From contig JBAZOA010000001.1 in assembly GCA_041648935.1 (NCBI GenBank), positions 2,433-66,432 on the forward strand: DNA of 64,000 nucleotides. Reading direction: 5' to 3'. Of the stretch, positions 4,132 to 56,140 are shown piece by piece (the first letter of the stretch is position 1; every line of letters begins with the position of its first letter). The notes under the pieces were generated by a model that worked only from the letters and a program-made list of their open reading frames with translations, was not told where the DNA came from and did no database searches. This DNA comes from Candidatus Omnitrophota bacterium. GTDB taxonomy: Bacteria > Omnitrophota > Gorgyraeia > Gorgyraeales > Gorgyraeaceae. Both the position numbers and the translations under genes were made by a program.

Positions 4132-6144
4132 TTAATCCAGCGTCAGCGGATTGTAATTATACTTGGCGAAAATGGTGTAGGCGGTCCCTGCCGTGGACCC
4201 TGTCCTGGCGCCGCGCGGGACCCTCCAGCCATGGCCGGTGTCGACGTCGTCCTGGGTCGCGTAAGGAAGACAGCCCTGGCCCTGGCCTATCCTGGAAGGG
4301 CTTATGATGACCATCTTCTCAAGCTCTGATATGTAAAAATCGGCTTTTTTACCGTAATATTCAGCCCTGTCAAATTCTTTCCGCGCGCGGTAATAATCGG
4401 CCATTATCCTGAAGGTCACGGCCATCTGACCAGTCCACTCGGTTGAGACAACCCCTCCCCTCGCCACGTGTTCGTATTTCCCGAAATCGAATCCCGTGAC
4501 CTTGACGTTCTCGCTGTCAGGCCTTGAATAATCCGTGGCGACCAGGCAATTTGTCTCGGCGAAATCGATTATCTGGTCAGGGTCCATGCCCTCATCCTTC
4601 AGGACCTTCGGCCCTATGGCGGCTATGGCCCAGGCAAACGTATCCGTGGCGATGGTGGCATCGCCCTTGCCCCTATTCATCCTGCCTTCTTTTTTATTAA
4701 AGGCGTTTTTCTTTATCCACGCGAGCGTCTTTTTCCGCGCGTCCAGATACTTCGCCTCTTCCGTGATCTTGTAAAGCATGCCGAAAAAGGCGTAGGCGTC
4801 CAGGTTGTGCTCCGTGCTGAACCACGCGTACCTGGGCCCTCCCTTTATCCCGTATTCCCTGTCCTGCCTCTGCAGATAGATCAGCCACTTGGCGATGTCC
4901 TCCGCCATGGCGAGATACGTCTCGTCTTTAAACTTGGCCGTGTACTGAAGTATCGCGATCCCCAGCCATATGTTAGGCCCGGCGTGGACGATGTATTCGC
5001 TGGGCTTGCCCGTATAGGCGTCATAGGCGTTCACGAACCCGTCATCGACCTTCTGGGCGCCATCCCTGTAAAAATCCAGGGCCGCCTTCGCGTTGCTCTG
5101 GTCGCCCATCAATGTAAAACACTGTATCGCGAGAGACTGGTCATAAGTAAACGCCCAGTCCTCCAGGTCCTTGTCCCCCTCGTAGCTGATCACCAGGCCC
5201 GTGCGCCTGTTCTGATGATTTTTTATCCACTTGTACATGCTGACAACGCTCTTGTCCTCGACCTTCCTGAATGACGCCAAAAGGGCCCTCAGGTTGTCCT
5301 CGACGGAGACCTTGTCGAACGAGATCCTCGAGACCCTGTTTTTCAGATATTCGTTTTCCCTGCTCAACCTGGTTATCCTCGCGTTAAACCTCGCCTTTTC
5401 CAGAAGAGACTGTTTTATCTTTGACTTTGCCTCGAACCCGTTTTCCCTAAGATACGCTATGAGACTGTCCTTCGCCATAAATTCGGAATTCAGCCTGTCA
5501 AGATCCGTCAGCTTGGCCTTGTACTGATCTATCTCGCTTTTATTATCGGAAATCGCGGCCTCTATTTCCTTGTTTTCCCTGTCAAACTGCTTTAGCTTTT
5601 TTTCCAAAGAGGCCTTTTTATCCGAAAGCCGCGCCAGCTCCTGCACTAATTTTTTATTGTCCACCCTTAACTTAAGGTCGCTGGCGGAAAAATACAGAAG
5701 CCCGGCGGCGATAACCAAAAACAGCGCGCCGAAAAATACGGGCGCGAAAACCGTTTTTCTGGCGTGGAGATATATGCGGTTCCTGTCTTTAGGATCTATA
5801 TCCACAAAGGAAAGCCCTATCAGGTATTTATTCGGGTAAGTCGCGCCTACCTTCTGGTGCCAGGCGATCTTCGCGACGGCCTTGGTCTCCATGCGGCTCA
5901 GGGGGATGTGCATCCTGACGTCCAGCCTCGCGCCCGGATCTTTCAGGAATTGTTCCAGGTCGTCCCTGAGGTCGTTCGCCTCCAGACAGATGCCGCCCTT
6001 GCCTATGTTCCTAGTGAAGCCCTGCTTCACGTCGCTTATGGAACCGGACGTCTCGGGATCTATGAATTGGAATTCCACCGGAAAGACCGCGTTGAGGCGG
6101 ATATAATTCCTGCGGTCGGATTGTTTTGGTTGGGACACTGCCAT
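4132..6144 (-). CDS. PilZ-domain membrane protein with coiled-coil and C-terminal alpha/alpha-repeat (glycoside-hydrolase-like) domain
   Basis: N-terminal PilZ motifs (RRNYIRL = RxxxR; DVKQGFTRNIGKGG = DxSxxG-like). One TM helix and a ~150-aa K/E-rich coiled coil. The C-terminal ~350 aa is rich in W/Y and aromatic/Gly repeats and is periplasmic-like. Confidence 0.55.
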   Translation of the reverse strand: MAVSQPKQSDRRNYIRLNAVFPVEFQFIDPETSGSISDVKQGFTRNIGKGGICLEANDLRDDLEQFLKDPGARLDVRMHIPLSRMETKAVAKIAWHQKVGATYPNKYLIGLSFVDIDPKDRNRIYLHARKTVFAPVFFGALFLVIAAGLLYFSASDLKLRVDNKKLVQELARLSDKKASLEKKLKQFDRENKEIEAAISDNKSEIDQYKAKLTDLDRLNSEFMAKDSLIAYLRENGFEAKSKIKQSLLEKARFNARITRLSRENEYLKNRVSRISFDKVSVEDNLRALLASFRKVEDKSVVSMYKWIKNHQNRRTGLVISYEGDKDLEDWAFTYDQSLAIQCFTLMGDQSNAKAALDFYRDGAQKVDDGFVNAYDAYTGKPSEYIVHAGPNIWLGIAILQYTAKFKDETYLAMAEDIAKWLIYLQRQDREYGIKGGPRYAWFSTEHNLDAYAFFGMLYKITEEAKYLDARKKTLAWIKKNAFNKKEGRMNRGKGDATIATDTFAWAIAAIGPKVLKDEGMDPDQIIDFAETNCLVATDYSRPDSENVKVTGFDFGKYEHVARGGVVSTEWTGQMAVTFRIMADYYRARKEFDRAEYYGKKADFYISELEKMVIISPSRIGQGQGCLPYATQDDVDTGHGWRVPRGARTGSTAGTAYTIFAKYNYNPLTLD

Positions 6145-6190
6145 ATCGATAAAATCTTATCAATAACCAACTATAAATGCAAGAAAAATC

Positions 6191-6231
6191 CCTTAGTTGA
6201 CACTCAAGCAATACTCCTTTTGTCAACTTGC
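6191..6231. repeat. E1 palindromic intergenic element, copy A (cttagttgaca-N18-tgtcaacttgc)
   Basis: Shares the AGTTGACA...AAAGGAGTATTGCT...TGTCAACT core with copies at 9595, 25297 and 56101. It reads in opposite orientation on the plus strand and lies 47 nt upstream of the PilZ-protein ATG. Confidence 0.8.
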
Positions 6232-6237
6232 GGGATA

Positions 6238-6645
6238 TTACGGGAGGCGGGGCTTCTTGATTTTCTTTTTAACCTGCCTTGGCTTGATAAAAAAATAGGA
6301 GCACAGAAAACCCAACAATATCACCGCGGAAAATAAAATGTGCGTCTCGCGCCTCATCGGGGAGGCCGCCGTGACAGGAGATGCGCGGTCCGGCGTGACT
6401 TCTTTCCCCGCCGGCGGAACGGGCGCCTCGCCGGAGAACCCATCGTCTTCATCGCCGGCGGCGCTCACGAACGGCCGCAATTTCCTCTTATTTTCCTCTC
6501 TCGCGGAATTTACCTCGTTTGACACGTTGATCTTTTCGATATCCGCAGAGGATTCCTCGGCAACCCATTCCCCGTCCCCCTCGTAAGGCCTCAGGGCGTA
6601 AAGAGAAGGAACGGCTGTCAAGATAATCAGGAAGACAGCCGACAT
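6238..6645 (-). CDS. Hypothetical secreted protein with C-terminal TM anchor and lysine-rich tail
   Basis: ORF with signal-peptide-like start MSAVFLIILTAVPSLYA; start moved to the internal Met to avoid overlap. Acidic, low-complexity middle region. C-terminal hydrophobic helix followed by KKKIKKPRLP. No recognisable domain. Confidence 0.3.
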   Translation of the reverse strand: MSAVFLIILTAVPSLYALRPYEGDGEWVAEESSADIEKINVSNEVNSAREENKRKLRPFVSAAGDEDDGFSGEAPVPPAGKEVTPDRASPVTAASPMRRETHILFSAVILLGFLCSYFFIKPRQVKKKIKKPRLP

Positions 6646-6650
6646 GGTCC

Positions 6651-8156
6651 TTATTCCCACCATCTGATGATCTCCACTTTTTTTGAAACAGGGAGGAAAA
6701 CGTCTATTATCCTGTTTTCGCCGGTCGTGTATCTTGAGTTTATCCGCTCATCGTAGTTGAATGTGAGCGTATTGGTATATATCATCGCCTCGTCTTTGGA
6801 TATCACGGCGCCGTTTATCACCGCGCCTCCGCCTAATTTGCCGGCGACCGCGTGATTTGTATAAAAAACCCCGTCTATCTTGCTTACCCTGTTAGTGGCC
6901 AAATCCCCGAACACGGAGACGCCCGCCGGACAATTCGCGAAGCTTGTTATCGGGACCTGGGTCTGCACGTTTGACCAGGTATAGTCATAGTCGCGCGCGC
7001 CGTCAGCGTCCAGGTCCTCATATTGCGCCTGAAATATCCCGTCGTCCTCATGCGCGTCGTTAGTGTCCGGTATGCCGTCTTCCCCCACGTCTTCGTCTCC
7101 CATCCGATATAGATAACTGCCGGCGGACCATGACCCGCCTGTCTTACCGGTATAATCGCCCAATATTATACTCTCTGTCGCGGCGAAACCCACCAGGTCG
7201 TCGTCTTTATGCGCCTCCACCCATCCGTCTGTCACGCTGGGATCATCCGAGGCCGGCCTTGGGCTCGAAGGGGCGTTTTTATAATTGACGTCGTTGGCGA
7301 CGTATATATTCCGGCCGGCGTAAAGAGTGCCCTGGCCCTTTATAGTGCCTTTTACCACGACATCGCCCCTTACCACCACCGGACCGTCTATCTCTATCGG
7401 ATCAGAGCTCGTGCCCACCAAAACGATATTCCCGCTCTCCCCGGAATCATCCCCGAACACGCCGTCTATCAAAGTAACCCCGTTTACCTTTATCGTGCCG
7501 CCTTCCGTCTTCGCCAGGTCCTCATAATAAGACGTATCATAGAGATTTGGCATTTCTAATTTCTCGGAATCAGGATGCTGATGGTCGGCGTCCCCGCCTG
7601 AACCGCGTATGCCGTCCCCGCCGTCGTCTATCTCAAAACCGGCGTATATATCGCCTGATACCCCGGGTCTGTCCCTGAAATCGAACCTTCCGTTCGAACG
7701 GACATCGCCCTTGGCGTCAATGCCGTTACCATAGAACCATCCCCAATTATTTATGAAATACGCGTAATCAAAGACCGCGGCGGGGGGATTTTTCTGCATG
7801 GTGGCGTTCAGCGTCTTCGCGGAAAAACCTACCTGGCTGAAACTGGCCACCTGATACACACCATTCCCCAGATCCGTCATTGTCACTGTTATGTCGTTAT
7901 CGTCAAGATAATTAAGCGCGGCGGAACCGCCTTTTAACCTGAAGGTCTCGCTTTCCACCACGCTGTCATTCTTTATCCTCCACACGGCCTTTTCCATGCC
8001 CGCTTCCGCTAAAAAGAACGCCTTCTCGGTATTCACCTGTCTCTCGGCGGCCTTCGCCTCGGTGGTGACCATGTAGACATATGAACTTCCACCTACCAAA
8101 AGCATGGTTAAAAAAGACATCGCCACGATTAACACGAACCCTTTTTTTCTCTTCAT
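6651..8156 (-). CDS. PilX-N-terminal-domain pilus assembly protein (minor pilin-like)
   Basis: N-terminus KKGFVLIVAMSFLTMLL...AFFLAEAGMEKAVW matches the PilX N-domain. The rest is a large beta-rich, Gly/Asp-rich body. Lies in the minor-pilin operon. Confidence 0.55.
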   Translation of the reverse strand: MKRKKGFVLIVAMSFLTMLLVGGSSYVYMVTTEAKAAERQVNTEKAFFLAEAGMEKAVWRIKNDSVVESETFRLKGGSAALNYLDDNDITVTMTDLGNGVYQVASFSQVGFSAKTLNATMQKNPPAAVFDYAYFINNWGWFYGNGIDAKGDVRSNGRFDFRDRPGVSGDIYAGFEIDDGGDGIRGSGGDADHQHPDSEKLEMPNLYDTSYYEDLAKTEGGTIKVNGVTLIDGVFGDDSGESGNIVLVGTSSDPIEIDGPVVVRGDVVVKGTIKGQGTLYAGRNIYVANDVNYKNAPSSPRPASDDPSVTDGWVEAHKDDDLVGFAATESIILGDYTGKTGGSWSAGSYLYRMGDEDVGEDGIPDTNDAHEDDGIFQAQYEDLDADGARDYDYTWSNVQTQVPITSFANCPAGVSVFGDLATNRVSKIDGVFYTNHAVAGKLGGGAVINGAVISKDEAMIYTNTLTFNYDERINSRYTTGENRIIDVFLPVSKKVEIIRWWE

Positions 8157-9594: not shown

Positions 9595-9634
9595 CTTAGT
9601 TGACAAAAGGAGTATTACTCATGTGTCAACTTAG
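9595..9634. repeat. E1 palindromic intergenic element, copy B (cttagttgaca-aaaggagtattactcatg-tgtcaacttag)
   Basis: 11-bp inverted arms with one T:T mismatch; 18-nt spacer contains AAAGGAG. Ends 2 nt before the stop of the 4Fe-4S gene and lies 16 nt upstream of the BFN nuclease ATG. Confidence 0.85.
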
Positions 9635-17136: not shown

Positions 17137-17571
17137 TTATCGATCTCTCCTTAAAGGATAATTGCCTTTCGGCCAGTCCTCTTTTAAAAGCAGGTGCCTC
17201 AGGTTCGGATGGCCCTTAAAATTAACTCCGAGCATCTCGTGTATCTCCATCTCTATCCACTCCGCGCCTTTCATGACGCCTGTCAACGTTTCCGTCTCGG
17301 GCTCCGGCTTAGCCAAAATAACCCGGAGAGAGACAATAAGCCCTGTCTCGTCTATCGAAAAGTGATAGAGTATCTCTATCGCCTTTCTGGTGTCCACTCC
17401 TGACGCGGTAATGAATCTGGCGCCCGCGTCATTATAAAGATACTTGACCAGCGGGACCAGCGCTGGATTGGAAACGGTAAAATAAATCCTGTTCTTCGAC
17501 CTGTCCTGGAAATCCAGGATGTCTTTTCCCGCGCGCACCTTTATGTTCTCTATTATCTCCTGTCTTTTCAT
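17137..17571 (-). CDS. NuoC/EchD/MbhK-like hydrogenase subunit (30 kDa subunit family)
   Basis: 144 aa NuoC-family fold, immediately upstream of the large subunit. Confidence 0.7.
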   Translation of the reverse strand: MKRQEIIENIKVRAGKDILDFQDRSKNRIYFTVSNPALVPLVKYLYNDAGARFITASGVDTRKAIEILYHFSIDETGLIVSLRVILAKPEPETETLTGVMKGAEWIEMEIHEMLGVNFKGHPNLRHLLLKEDWPKGNYPLRRDR

Positions 17572-17595: not shown

Positions 17596-17635
17596 AGCAA
17601 CAGTAGAGGAGGTTTAAACCTCCTCTACTGTTGCT
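17596..17635. repeat. E2 perfect palindrome, copy 1 (AGCAACAGTAGAGGAGG-TTTAAA-CCTCCTCTACTGTTGCT)
   Basis: 40-bp perfect palindrome. Overlaps the NuoB-like stop codon by 2 nt and lies 24 nt upstream of the NuoC-like ATG. Related to the copy at 20289. Confidence 0.9.
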
Positions 17636-18062
17636 ACTTTTTGCTTGTCAATTTTTCTATGAGTTTCGTGATGCCCGCTATCATGGCCTCCGGCTTAGGC
17701 GGGCAGCCCGGTATGTAGACATCAACCGGCAGGACAGAATCGACCGGATCCGGGCAATTCGGCCCGTTTCTGAAAATACCCTGTCCGCACGCGCACGTGC
17801 CTATGGCGATAACGACGCACGGCTTCGGGGCCTGCGCGTAAATCTTTTTTATCAACGGCAGCGCCTTCAGGTTTAAAGAACCCGTCACCAATATGGCGTC
17901 CGCGTGCCTTATGCTTCCGACCAGCGTGATGCCGAACCTCTCCGCGTCGAACCTCGGGGTCAGCATATCCAATATCTCTATGTCGCAGTTATTACAGCTT
18001 CCCGTCGACATGTGATAAACCCAGATCGACTTGGTCAATGCCTTTAGCCTGAATCCCATCAT
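17634..18062 (-). CDS. [NiFe]-hydrogenase small subunit (NuoB/EchC/MbhJ-like)
   Basis: Fe-S ligand motifs (GSCNNC, GTCA) and the GCPPKPEAMIAGI signature. Confidence 0.85.
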   Translation of the reverse strand: MMGFRLKALTKSIWVYHMSTGSCNNCDIEILDMLTPRFDAERFGITLVGSIRHADAILVTGSLNLKALPLIKKIYAQAPKPCVVIAIGTCACGQGIFRNGPNCPDPVDSVLPVDVYIPGCPPKPEAMIAGITKLIEKLTSKK

Positions 18063-19444: not shown

Positions 19445-20272
19445 TCAATCCCATATCTCGTGAATGTGGCTTATCCTGTCGTACCTGAATACCGGGCCGT
19501 CCTTGCACGCGTAAAAATTCCCCAGGCGGCAATGGCCACATTTTCCCATACCGCAGCTCATGTTCTTTTCCATCGACAGATAAACCTGGTCCTGCCTGTA
19601 TCCCACGTCCATAAGCTTGAACGTGGCGAACTTCATCATTATGGGCGGCCCGCACACTATCGCCACGCTGTTTTTTAAATCCAGATCCAGCTTGTCCAGC
19701 GTGGTCGTGACCAGGCCGACATTGCCTTTCCAGCTATCATCTTTTCTATCCACTGTTATCCTGAATTTGATCTTCTTTTTGTCCAGGCACTGCCACTTAT
19801 CCAGCATGCAGTCCTTGTATATGATATCTGACGGCGTCCTGGAACCGCAGCAGAACAGGACGCTCTTGTACCTGTCTATGTCGTGCGCCAACGCCAGAAA
19901 AAGCGCCCTCAGAGGCGCGAGCCCGACCCCGCCGCCCACAAGCAGGACGTCCTTGCCCTCGAATTCGGATAACGGATACTCGTTGCCAAAAGGCCCCCTG
20001 AGCCCGACCGCGTCTCCTTTTTTCAGGCCGTGTATCATGCCGGTGATCCTGCCCGCTTTCATTATCGTGACTTCCAGCCTGCTCTTTTCATAAGGGGAGG
20101 ATGAAGGGGTAAAAGGCGCCTCTCCCACGCCGGGCACTGTCATTTCTATGAACTGCCCCGCCTTGAAACCCATCGGCCTCTCAGGCCTCAGACAGAATGT
20201 CTTTATGGTGGGGCTTTCGTCTATTATATCAATTACTTCTGTCTTTACGGGTAAATACGGATTATCTATCAT
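19445..20272 (-). CDS. FAD/NAD(P)-binding oxidoreductase with C-terminal 2Fe-2S (sulfhydrogenase gamma HydG / AsrB-like)
   Basis: FNR-like fold (GQFIEMTVPG, LLVGGGVGLAPL, CGPP) plus C-terminal CGMGKCGHC. Confidence 0.7.
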   Translation of the reverse strand: MIDNPYLPVKTEVIDIIDESPTIKTFCLRPERPMGFKAGQFIEMTVPGVGEAPFTPSSSPYEKSRLEVTIMKAGRITGMIHGLKKGDAVGLRGPFGNEYPLSEFEGKDVLLVGGGVGLAPLRALFLALAHDIDRYKSVLFCCGSRTPSDIIYKDCMLDKWQCLDKKKIKFRITVDRKDDSWKGNVGLVTTTLDKLDLDLKNSVAIVCGPPIMMKFATFKLMDVGYRQDQVYLSMEKNMSCGMGKCGHCRLGNFYACKDGPVFRYDRISHIHEIWD

Positions 20273-20288
20273 CACTTAATCAATCCCT

Positions 20289-20330
20289 CAGCAGCAGTAG
20301 GGGAGGTTTAAACCTCCCCTACTGCTGCTG
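20289..20330. repeat. E2 perfect palindrome, copy 2 (CAGCAGCAGTAGGGGAGG-TTTAAA-CCTCCCCTACTGCTGCTG)
   Basis: 42-bp perfect palindrome, 3 nt after the HydB-like stop and 13-16 nt upstream of the HydG-like start. Differs from copy 1 at positions that are changed symmetrically in both arms. Confidence 0.9.
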
Positions 20331-20333
20331 CTA

Positions 20334-21362
20334 TTACTCAAGCGCTAATTTACTGAGGACTTCCCTTATGTCTATCTTCCCGGGACACGCCTCCACACAC
20401 CTGCCGCAGCCGGTGCACCCGAACCTGGCGATATTATCGGGGAAAAAATTGAATTTCTTGTCAAATCTATTTCTCAGGCGCTGCGCGAGGAGCTTGCGGG
20501 GATTCGCGCCTCCGGCGACCCTCGCGAAAGACATCAAGAGACAGGAATCCCATTGCCTCAACCGCTCAAAACCCTCTTCGCCGTTCTGGTCCTTCAGCAC
20601 GAAACAATGGCAGGCCGGACATATGAAATTGCACGCGCCGCATTCAACACACGTCTTCGCCGTCTCTTCCCACAATTTCGACTCGAATTTTTTCCTGAAT
20701 AAACCCTGCACGGCATCGCTCGGCGGGATATTGCTCTTCTCCACGTGCCTCGAAAGCCTGTCTTTCAGCTGTCTCCTGTTGGATTCTCTTTTTTCGGAAT
20801 AGGGCGCGGCGCTCTGGAATAATTTAAAATATTCCCTTATTATCTTTTCTCCCTTATTGGAACCGGCCTCCGCCACATAACCGCTTTCTATCTCGGAGAT
20901 ATTTATGTCAAAATTATCCGTTGGGTAAGGCATTATGCCTATGGCGAGACAAAAACACGTCTGGCCATGGGTAGTGCAATCGGATGATATGATCAGGCCT
21001 TCTTCTCTCCTGGAGACGTAAAAGGGATCCTTGAACGGTTCCTGCGAATATACATAGTCCATGACCTTGAAGGAAGCGAGATCGCATGCCTTGGCGCCTA
21101 TTATGGCGATGGGCCTTTCAGTCCTGTCGCTGTTCTTTTCCGAAAAATAACCCGCCACCTTTGACCGCGCCGGAAAATAAAAACTCTTCAGGGGTTCGAC
21201 GGCCCTGATCTCCCCCAGCACGGCGCCTTCAAGCCCTTCCTCCCCCATTTTCTTATAAAACCGCTCTTCACCTGACTTGACCGGGACATAAACCCTGTAC
21301 GTCTTGGCCAAAGACATGGCCAATCTGTCCAGGTTCGGCCTATTAATAAAGTATAAATCCAT
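20334..21362 (-). CDS. Fe-S oxidoreductase subunit (sulfhydrogenase beta HydB / AsrA-like)
   Basis: CVECGACNFICPACHC and CTGCGRCVEACP 4Fe-4S motifs plus an N-terminal Cys cluster; pairs with the adjacent HydG-like gene. Confidence 0.65.
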   Translation of the reverse strand: MDLYFINRPNLDRLAMSLAKTYRVYVPVKSGEERFYKKMGEEGLEGAVLGEIRAVEPLKSFYFPARSKVAGYFSEKNSDRTERPIAIIGAKACDLASFKVMDYVYSQEPFKDPFYVSRREEGLIISSDCTTHGQTCFCLAIGIMPYPTDNFDINISEIESGYVAEAGSNKGEKIIREYFKLFQSAAPYSEKRESNRRQLKDRLSRHVEKSNIPPSDAVQGLFRKKFESKLWEETAKTCVECGACNFICPACHCFVLKDQNGEEGFERLRQWDSCLLMSFARVAGGANPRKLLAQRLRNRFDKKFNFFPDNIARFGCTGCGRCVEACPGKIDIREVLSKLALE

Positions 21363-21431
21363 TGGGTTGATCCTTAGAAGACTTCGTGAAATTTATCACA
21401 ATCTTTTGAAAAAAAAATAAATTACCTATAT

Positions 21432-21460
21432 TTTATAATACAAAGACGCTCTCCTGTCAA
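21432..21460 (-). promoter_or_regulatory. Sigma-70-like promoter upstream of the hydB-like/hydrogenase/mrp operon (TTGACA-17-TATAAA)
   Basis: Minus strand reads TTGACAggagagcgtctttgtatTATAAA, 70 nt upstream of the HydB-like ATG, in a 115-nt AT-rich intergenic region. Confidence 0.45.
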
Positions 21461-21477
21461 TATAAATTTTACCGGCG

Positions 21478-25296: not shown

Positions 25297-25337
25297 CTAA
25301 GTTGACAAAAGGAGTATTGCTTGTTGTGTCAACTTAG
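25297..25337. repeat. E1 palindromic intergenic element, copy C (ctaagttgaca-N19-tgtcaacttag; perfect 11-bp arms)
   Basis: Contains the hypF-like TGA stop in its arm and ends 15 nt upstream of the hypC ATG. Confidence 0.85.
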
Positions 25338-56100: not shown

Positions 56101-56140
56101 CTAAGTTGACAAAAGGAGTATTACTCGAGTGTCAACTAAG
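56101..56140. repeat. E1 palindromic intergenic element, copy D (ctaagttgaca-aaaggagtattactcgag-tgtcaactaag)
   Basis: Contains the batA TAG stop in its right arm and lies 20 nt upstream of the batB ATG. Confidence 0.85.

Follow-up and report, generated by a model that had tools for sequence, protein, structure and literature searches.

Hydrogenase operon and its two palindromes

The window, i.e. the whole 64-kb stretch of DNA analysed here, carries a group-4, membrane-bound (Mbh-type) [NiFe] hydrogenase operon that harbors two palindromes, designated copy 1 and copy 2. All genes near the palindromes are encoded on the minus strand and belong to this one cluster. In the direction of transcription, the cluster proceeds from the Hyp maturation genes and a NIL/ferredoxin gene to the HydB/AsrA-like Fer4_22 gene, copy 2 and the HydG/AsrB-like FAD/NAD gene, continues through ferredoxin, NuoH-like and NuoB-like small subunit genes to copy 1, and goes on to the genes for the NuoC-like protein, the NuoD-like [NiFe] large subunit and Mrp/Mbh antiporter-type subunits. 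The features at the two palindrome-bearing junctions are, in the order of transcription:

20334-21362, minus strand: HydB/AsrA-like iron-sulfur protein (Fer4_22), cistron upstream of copy 2; stop codon TAA at 20336-20334, then TAG
20289-20330, no strand assigned: copy 2, perfect 42-nt palindrome and probable REP element, transcribed within the minus-strand operon
20297-20322, no strand assigned: core of copy 2, GTAG-GGGAGG-TTTAAA-CCTCCC-CTAC; majority subfamily, 82 sites in the fetched loci
19445-20275, minus strand: HydG/AsrB-like FAD/NAD-binding protein, cistron downstream of copy 2; probable start codon ATG at 20272
17634-18062, minus strand: NuoB-like hydrogenase small subunit, cistron upstream of copy 1; stop codon TAG at 17636-17634
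17596-17635, no strand assigned: copy 1, perfect 40-nt palindrome and probable REP element, first bases overlapping the TAG stop codon of the NuoB-like gene
17603-17628, no strand assigned: core of copy 1, GTAG-AGGAGG-TTTAAA-CCTCCT-CTAC; minority subfamily, 6 sites
17137-17571, minus strand: NuoC-like 30-kDa subunit, cistron downstream of copy 1; Shine-Dalgarno-like AAGGGUG located 3' of the hairpin

Copy 2 reads CAGCAGCAGTAGGGGAGG-TTTAAA-CCTCCCCTACTGCTGCTG and copy 1 reads AGCAACAGTAGAGGAGG-TTTAAA-CCTCCTCTACTGTTGCT. A first-pass annotation, made from the letters of this DNA, had described both as perfect palindromes that differ by mirrored A/G substitutions, and both statements were confirmed. 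The copies are palindromic over 42 nt and 40 nt, respectively, and differ at two A/G positions per arm (CAACAG vs. CAGCAG; GTAGA vs. GTAGG), each of which is matched in the opposite arm. When the 64 kb were searched for the arms with up to three mismatches, only the positions of copies 1 and 2 were recovered (chance expectation 0.03; four arm matches were attained in none of 100 shuffles), and no other long palindrome exists in the window. On the mRNA strand, a perfect stem of 19 bp is predicted for each copy, with free energies of the folded regions of -48.8 kcal/mol for copy 2 and -36.9 kcal/mol for copy 1 (z-scores -9.1 and -7.3). The predicted fold of copy 2 extends further, so that the stop region of the HydB-like gene pairs with the start region of the HydG-like gene. 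An Rfam scan of the whole window yielded no family match at gathering score, and a tRNA/tmRNA scan of the window found none.

Copy 2 follows the TAA-TAG of the HydB-like gene, while copy 1 begins inside the TAG stop codon of the NuoB-like gene. Towards the next gene, 24 nt separate copy 1 from the ATG of the NuoC-like gene at 17571, and 13 nt or 16 nt separate copy 2 from the HydG-like start, depending on whether GTG 20275 or ATG 20272 is used. The gene coordinates thereby bear out the distances given earlier, i.e. 13-24 nt to a start codon and no more than 3 nt to the preceding stop. For the HydG-like protein, ATG 20272 (MIDNP...) is the probable start instead of GTG 20275 as given in the ORF list: its orthologues begin with ATGATAGAC, and an independent gene call comprises 275 aa. 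Shine-Dalgarno-like purine runs are present 3' of both hairpins. From the HydB-like gene onwards, the palindrome-bearing junctions measure about 60 nt, whereas the remaining junctions overlap or abut.

Both copies are internal to a metagenomic contig of 157,694 bp (ENA ERZ27247363, contig k141_2608681). The same sequences are present in an independent Logan assembly (L002), whose contigs break within each of the palindromes, the expected behavior of k-mer assemblers where a repeat is self-complementary. Since the same sequences were thus recovered from an independent sample, an assembly artefact was ruled out. The copies are separated by 2.7 kb with conserved genes in between. A CRISPR array, with direct repeats at regular intervals and unique spacers, was also ruled out on these grounds. 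The same applies to a REPIN doublet, i.e. two inverted REPs plus spacer within about 130 bp, as the window copies are single and 2.7 kb apart, and to IS200/IS605 ends, as the window palindromes lack distinct left and right ends.

Two further elements in the window deserve mention. The gap 5' of the HydB-like gene (21363-21477, minus strand) contains a promoter-like TTGACA-N17-TATTAT followed by TGTGATAAATTTCAC at 21386-21400, which fits the CRP/FNR-type consensus TGTGA-N6-TCACA at its first 15 positions out of 16 and represents a candidate regulator site for the hydrogenase operon, judged by its sequence. Similar motifs occur in the orthologous gaps of loci L058 (1358-1656) and L060 (1144-1351). 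Besides, a second dispersed intergenic element of about 41 nt was noticed, CTAAGTTGACA-AAAGGAGTATT(A/G)CT...-TGTCAACTTAG, consisting of 11-nt inverted arms around a conserved 19-nt spacer:

6192-6232, 9595-9634, 25297-25337 and 56101-56140: the four copies of the second element, in short gaps beside minus-strand genes

Chance would account for 0.46 arm matches. It may represent an operator or a further family of small repeats.

Pairing, not stem sequence, is conserved across a dispersed family

One representative genome per species, covering 185,579 species, was scanned with a pattern constraining one arm and the loop only (CARCAGTAGRGGAGGTTTAAA). This yielded 53 loci in 10 MAGs, all but one of which are labelled Candidatus Omnitrophota. 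All fetched sequence (577 kb) was then re-scanned with the half-site GTAG-N6-TTTAAA, leaving the second arm free, which returned about 185 distinct sites. Although unconstrained by the search, the second arm proved to be perfectly complementary in 158 of 184 scorable sites and carried one mismatch in 7; the rest are mostly truncated or decayed. An abundance of uncompensated copies, which according to the first-pass annotation would speak against structural selection, was not seen. The core of the family is GTAG-N6-TTTAAA-N6-CTAC. Its six stem positions take 20 different sequences, almost all of them mirrored, with GGGAGG (82 sites), GGTGGG (27), GGGACG (15), CTGACG (11) and AGGAGG (6) among the hexamers, next to others. 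Invariant are only the GTAG tags and the TTTAAA center, while the letters of the stem vary and pairing is kept. Among 109 distinct sequences, GTAG shows no or almost no variation, and the same holds for its partner CTAC, which the search left unconstrained; GTAG itself was required on at least one arm.

Within the same 109 sequences, 20-36 two-sided changes, 0-1 one-sided changes and at most three unpaired cases were counted for each of the five stem pairs that vary most, and the observed covariation score was reached by none of 500 shuffles. Thus, pairing rather than stem sequence is conserved across the family. The proposal of selection on base pairing therefore stands insofar as pairing is maintained family-wide, but not as covariation between two local sites. 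The variants seen in the window, GTAGAGGAGG and GTAGGGGAGG with their AACAG and AGCAG flanks, are subfamilies present in many Omnitrophota genomes, and each of them is also found beside RAYT transposase genes (see below), which contradicts the idea of sister sites that co-evolved in place.

The family is essentially extragenic: only 4 of the about 185 sites lie inside ORFs, though 87% of the sequence is coding. Of the others, 112 have co-directional genes as neighbors, 23 convergent and 12 divergent ones. Measured as medians, the upstream stop is 47 nt and the downstream start 63 nt away; since the preference for the upstream stop is this weak, location at stop codons was dropped as a rule for the family. 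Copy density differs between genomes, with at least 89 distinct sites in the 232 kb fetched from MAG JAUYBI01, 21 sites in JAHIKK01, and a low density of three copies in about 73 kb on the contig of the window. The third copy on this contig resides in an unrelated gap about 50 kb away (18351-18376 of L089) and is part of a 54-nt perfect palindrome that includes RAYT-type TTATCCACA/TGTGGATAA flanks. REP doublets exist elsewhere, e.g. at L053:2700 and L053:2774.

Various arrangements of copies and related repeats were recorded along the way. A sister REP family, GTAGGGTGGGTTTAAACCCACCCTAC, comprises 27 sites that are often in tandem with the GGGAGG family via a conserved linker (L023, L029, L046, e.g. 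at about 7520-7610, L014, L051, L052 and others). Candidatus Tantalella remota possesses diverged units with the loops TTAAAA and TTTTAA, which form tandem-like arrays with a spacing of about 55 nt (L041 1150-1330, 2300-2460 and 3650-3760). In other MAGs, many copies are fused to a promoter-like conserved flank, TTGATAAAAGTCCGCAGGGTTTATTATAATGTC, or to TTGAAAGTCAGCAAGGTTTGTTACACTGTC on the other side, e.g. L013:5006, L025:7783, L030:3017 and L051:3623. This flank is enriched (21 of 366 sides compared to a background of 0.03%), but a promoter role found no support, as according to crude ORF calls the next gene matches its direction in 8 cases and opposes it in 10.

In another subfamily, the copies occupy the loop of a longer hairpin that surrounds them, GGGGACGGTTCTATTTTT...AAAAATAGAACCGTCCCC, this outer hairpin being a repeat in its own right (L024:1271, L040:3640, L015:5160, L009:5279 and others). 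Further copies are enclosed by outer palindromes that are specific to one locus and precede T-runs, e.g. L050:4337. Both arrangements suggest insertion into pre-existing hairpin loops.

RAYT transposase genes and orthologous operon junctions

Locus L005 encodes a 163-aa protein (ORF 6292-6792) with a HUH motif (HLHLV) and a tyrosine motif (YMHNNP). It scored 117 bits against the NCBIfam model NF047646 'REP-associated tyrosine transposase' (cut-off 80), but only 20 bits against the IS200 model (cut-off 55), and it matches Pfam Y1_Tnp. Its sole PDB match is 4ER8, E. coli TnpA-REP (E 7.5e-10). An E. coli RAYT sequence used as phmmer query hit this ORF, and an IS608 TnpA sequence hit none of the ORFs of the loci. 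Family palindromes directly flank the L005 RAYT gene on both sides, namely GTAGGGGACGTTTAAACGTCCCCTAC-ATTGTGGATAAC at its upstream and GTTATCCACAG-AGTAGCTGACGTTTAAACGTTAGCTACT at its downstream side.

Scanning metagenomes with the L005 protein revealed 26 homologous RAYT loci. Of these, 23 have a GTAG...CTAC palindrome upstream, whose stem is at least 13 bp long and which lies about 6-120 nt from the gene, mostly no more than 45 nt; 22 of these 23 palindromes have a TTTAAA center, and 12 RAYT loci feature a downstream palindrome as well. A RAYT gene flanked by repeats is the defining REP/RAYT arrangement (PMC2817692, PMC3733652). Both cores of the window are represented at such genes: that of copy 1 directly upstream of the gene in L081 (GTAGAGGAGGTTTAAACCTCCTCTAC), and that of copy 2 in L064, L065, L067, L070, L078 and L083 (GTAGGGGAGGTTTAAACCTCCCCTAC). 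With the L005 protein as query, no RAYT was found in the 64-kb window or in the other fetched loci, nor was one present in the 8.9 kb of the contig past the window, where the third REP is located. Mobilisation by a RAYT in the window's own genome is thus putative.

REPs adjacent to RAYT genes have TGTGGATAA/TTATCCACA as inverted borders (L005 5974-5986, 6288-6300 and 6793-6803), as does the third copy on the window's contig (L089 18341-18386). This 9-mer coincides with the DnaA-box consensus.

Orthologous hydrogenase operons were available for comparison in L056, L058 and L060, whose NuoB-like proteins are 80-88% identical to that of the window. At the NuoB>NuoC junction, which holds copy 1 in the window, L060 has TAA-TAG-GTAGGGCAGGTTTAAACCTGCCCTAC plus about 45 nt, L058 a 4-nt gene overlap, and L056 a 13-nt gap with the motif TGTGCCAAAAA that also occurs at the end of the L060 gap. 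By its sequence, the L056 gap is a clean empty site. At the HydB>HydG junction, which holds copy 2 in the window, the genes overlap in L060; L058 has a 57-nt gap devoid of a palindrome, and in L056 the gap of 181 nt accommodates other repeats. Further family members occupy other junctions of the orthologous operons, so that intercistronic junctions of the Mbh-type operon were colonised repeatedly (window, L056, L058, L060). Thus, the insertions are polymorphic between lineages, and the finding that the same junctions are empty or filled agrees with both copies having inserted immediately 3' of stop codons. In E. coli, intercistronic REPs within 15 nt of a stop codon reportedly act on the mRNA (Liang et al. 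2015).

Some junctions of these operons contain repeats in other configurations. In L060 (about 7160-7207), the NuoD-like gene runs into a REP copy and terminates at the TAA of the TTTAAA loop, yielding a protein of 407 aa compared to 391 aa in the window. In L056, the orthologous operon closest to that of the window, several junctions (1060-1242, 4798-4951 and 6132-6307) carry a different, classical single-tag GTAG REP (GTAGCTGCAAAGCTTGCTTTGC / GCAGAGCAAGCTCTGCRGCTAC), and a palindrome of the GCGGATAGCGTATAGCG type is found at the same Fer4>NuoH junction in L056 (2744-2876) and L060 (3809-3889).

Identity of the palindromes, alternatives and known systems

We consider it very probable that both palindromes are REP elements of the GTAG-tagged superfamily, i.e. 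short non-autonomous mobile hairpins, an identity that escaped the first-pass annotation. The covariation between copies 1 and 2 is genuine, but it reflects hairpin maintenance across the family rather than local co-evolution: the 'compensatory' differences arise because the copies belong to two subfamilies with alternative complementary stems. By analogy with the structure and biochemistry of E. coli TnpA-REP (PDB 4ER8), the RAYT would recognise and cleave a folded single-stranded DNA hairpin plus the GTAG tetranucleotide, and as for TnpA-REP and other REP systems in the literature, it would be responsible for spreading the copies. If a copy is mobilisable only with an intact hairpin, subfamilies with complementary stems would emerge, and the copies in the window would have inherited their different stems at insertion instead of acquiring them in place.

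The strongest competitor is a cis-regulatory RNA hairpin specific for this operon, which would set the expression of hydrogenase modules as an intercistronic stabiliser, RNase III site or translational uncoupler, with copies that evolved in place by compensatory mutation. Both copies indeed occupy junctions of one operon, with a stop codon directly before and a Shine-Dalgarno-like sequence 3' of each; the hairpins are predicted to be very stable, that of copy 2 even joining the HydB stop to the HydG start region; and the NuoB>NuoC junction of L060 also holds a family member. In addition, E. coli REPs can stabilise upstream mRNA (Newbury 1987, as cited in PMC7509114). However, the same cores recur at about 185 unrelated intergenic sites and beside transposase genes, the junctions are empty or contain unrelated repeats in the closest orthologous operons, and both sequence variants pre-exist elsewhere as subfamilies. 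We therefore regard this explanation as unlikely. Likewise, the specific role in the expression of the flanking genes that had been suggested for the palindromes is unsupported, and these junctions are empty in orthologous operons.

REP elements may nevertheless exert a secondary, exapted effect on the operon. When transcribed, the copies would give rise to perfect RNA hairpins of 19-21 bp between the cistrons. By analogy to other REPs, such hairpins could block 3' exonucleases and protect the upstream mRNA, or they could be targets of double-strand RNases. Translational coupling, as seen where the other junctions of the operon overlap, could likewise be lost through the hairpins, and since they begin 0-3 nt past the stop codon, impeded termination or uncoupled translation may result. 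Whether the hairpins have a measurable effect on expression of the hydrogenase operon is, going by these analogies, close to a coin toss, while a selected, co-opted role in the operon appears improbable. A joint reading would combine a distinct, symmetric double-tagged REP class of Omnitrophota with copies at hydrogenase junctions that were maybe co-opted. Here, the RAYT would encounter the same GTAG-hairpin substrate on either DNA strand, and the co-opted hairpins would set the stoichiometry of the hydrogenase modules as determinants of RNA processing or stability. We view this combination as rather doubtful.

Quasi-palindrome correction is an established mutational process, and it offers a very different account, in which hairpin- or cruciform-templated repair or template switching, and not selection for pairing, keeps neutral palindromes perfect. 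In line with it, some copies possess long, perfectly palindromic flanks found at a single locus, e.g. L050:4337 and L028:3103. Yet the dispersal to about 185 sites, the invariant GTAG tags and the association with transposases remain unexplained in this way, and the existence of decayed and half copies indicates that correction is not universal. As the full explanation, templated repair is very unlikely, but part of the mirrored changes could stem from it.

We also weighed intrinsic (Rho-independent) or bidirectional terminators. Both copies form strong GC-containing hairpins and copy 1 resembles a terminator on the plus strand, but the plus-strand T-run in question is the complement of the coding end of the NuoB-like gene, and full termination in mid-operon would deprive an obligate multi-subunit operon of its downstream subunits. 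Neither hairpin has a T-run behind it on the sense (minus) strand. For lack of this U-tract an intrinsic terminator was rejected, and terminator function at large is highly improbable. Finally, a DNA operator whose symmetry is selected for binding of a dimeric transcription factor or nucleoid protein, the 'dimer-site symmetry' considered initially, might be read from the perfect two-fold symmetry and the invariant GTAG and GTTTAAAC parts, but can be dismissed almost entirely: six stem positions that take 20 sequences while keeping complementarity, with only GTAG and TTTAAA invariant, are the signature of a folded strand rather than of base-specific contacts, the sites lie within the operon and not at promoters, and the family is tied to a single-strand HUH transposase.

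Assignment of the palindromes to REP elements turns an apparent signal of regulatory covariation into a concrete identity, namely a REP/RAYT mobile-hairpin system, and extends this system to Omnitrophota, a phylum of uncultured, mostly ultra-small bacteria. For annotation, REPs account for odd 60-nt gaps in otherwise overlapping operons, for contig breaks inside palindromes and for C-terminal extensions of genes that read into a REP. The symmetric double-tagged form supplies a natural series of compensated stem variants for testing how a RAYT reads its hairpin, and the recurrent insertions in an essential multi-subunit operon allow to test how REPs influence polycistronic expression. A literature search for REPs in Omnitrophota returned no report. 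The REP kind itself is already known, here in a phylum new to it and in a symmetric double-tagged form.

Comparison with known systems places the family as follows. With IS200/IS605 elements and palindrome-associated miniatures it shares a transposase family, HUH/Y1, that acts on subterminal DNA hairpins; it differs in that neither a transposase nor TnpB lies between the window copies and in that the L005 RAYT scores far above the cut-off of the RAYT model but below that for IS200. Intercistronic REP/BIME elements of E. coli are similar in their location inside an operon right after a stop codon and in the hairpin predicted in the transcript, whereas the stems predicted in the window are longer, perfect and long enough for a double-strand RNase. 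REPIN-RAYT systems (Bertels and Rainey 2011, PMC3116915; bioRxiv 10.1101/2021.07.10.451892) likewise comprise non-autonomous extragenic repeats that are tied to a RAYT and maintain their hairpin. However, a REPIN consists of two REPs plus spacer, about 100 bp in total, in contrast to the single compact palindromes of the window, and the RAYTs associated with REPINs belong to Groups 2 and 3, mainly from Gammaproteobacteria (PMC3116915; bioRxiv 10.1101/2021.07.10.451892).

The closest match is provided by the GTAG REPs, which form subfamilies with complementary stems, reside mostly between co-directional ORFs and supply TAG stop codons through their tags (PMC3733652), and whose RAYT genes are flanked by REPs in so-called REPtrons (Nunvar et al. 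2010, PMC2817692; Di Nocera et al. 2013, PMC3733652). Members of the PVC group listed in these reports are Planctomycetes and Verrucomicrobia, with Omnitrophota unlisted (PMC3733652, PMC2817692). The Omnitrophota family agrees with GTAG REPs in the tag, size, extragenic location, complementary stem subfamilies, TAG stop codons and RAYT association, and its sister family GTAGGGTGGG...CCCACC resembles the Haemophilus REP GTAGGGTGGGCTTyAGCCCACC (PMC2817692). In classical GTAG REPs, the tag is unpaired and present at one end only, and published stems measure 6-13 bp. In Omnitrophota, by contrast, stems of at least 13 bp are at the top of this range, the tag is paired at both ends (GTAG...CTAC), and the whole unit including TTTAAA is palindromic.
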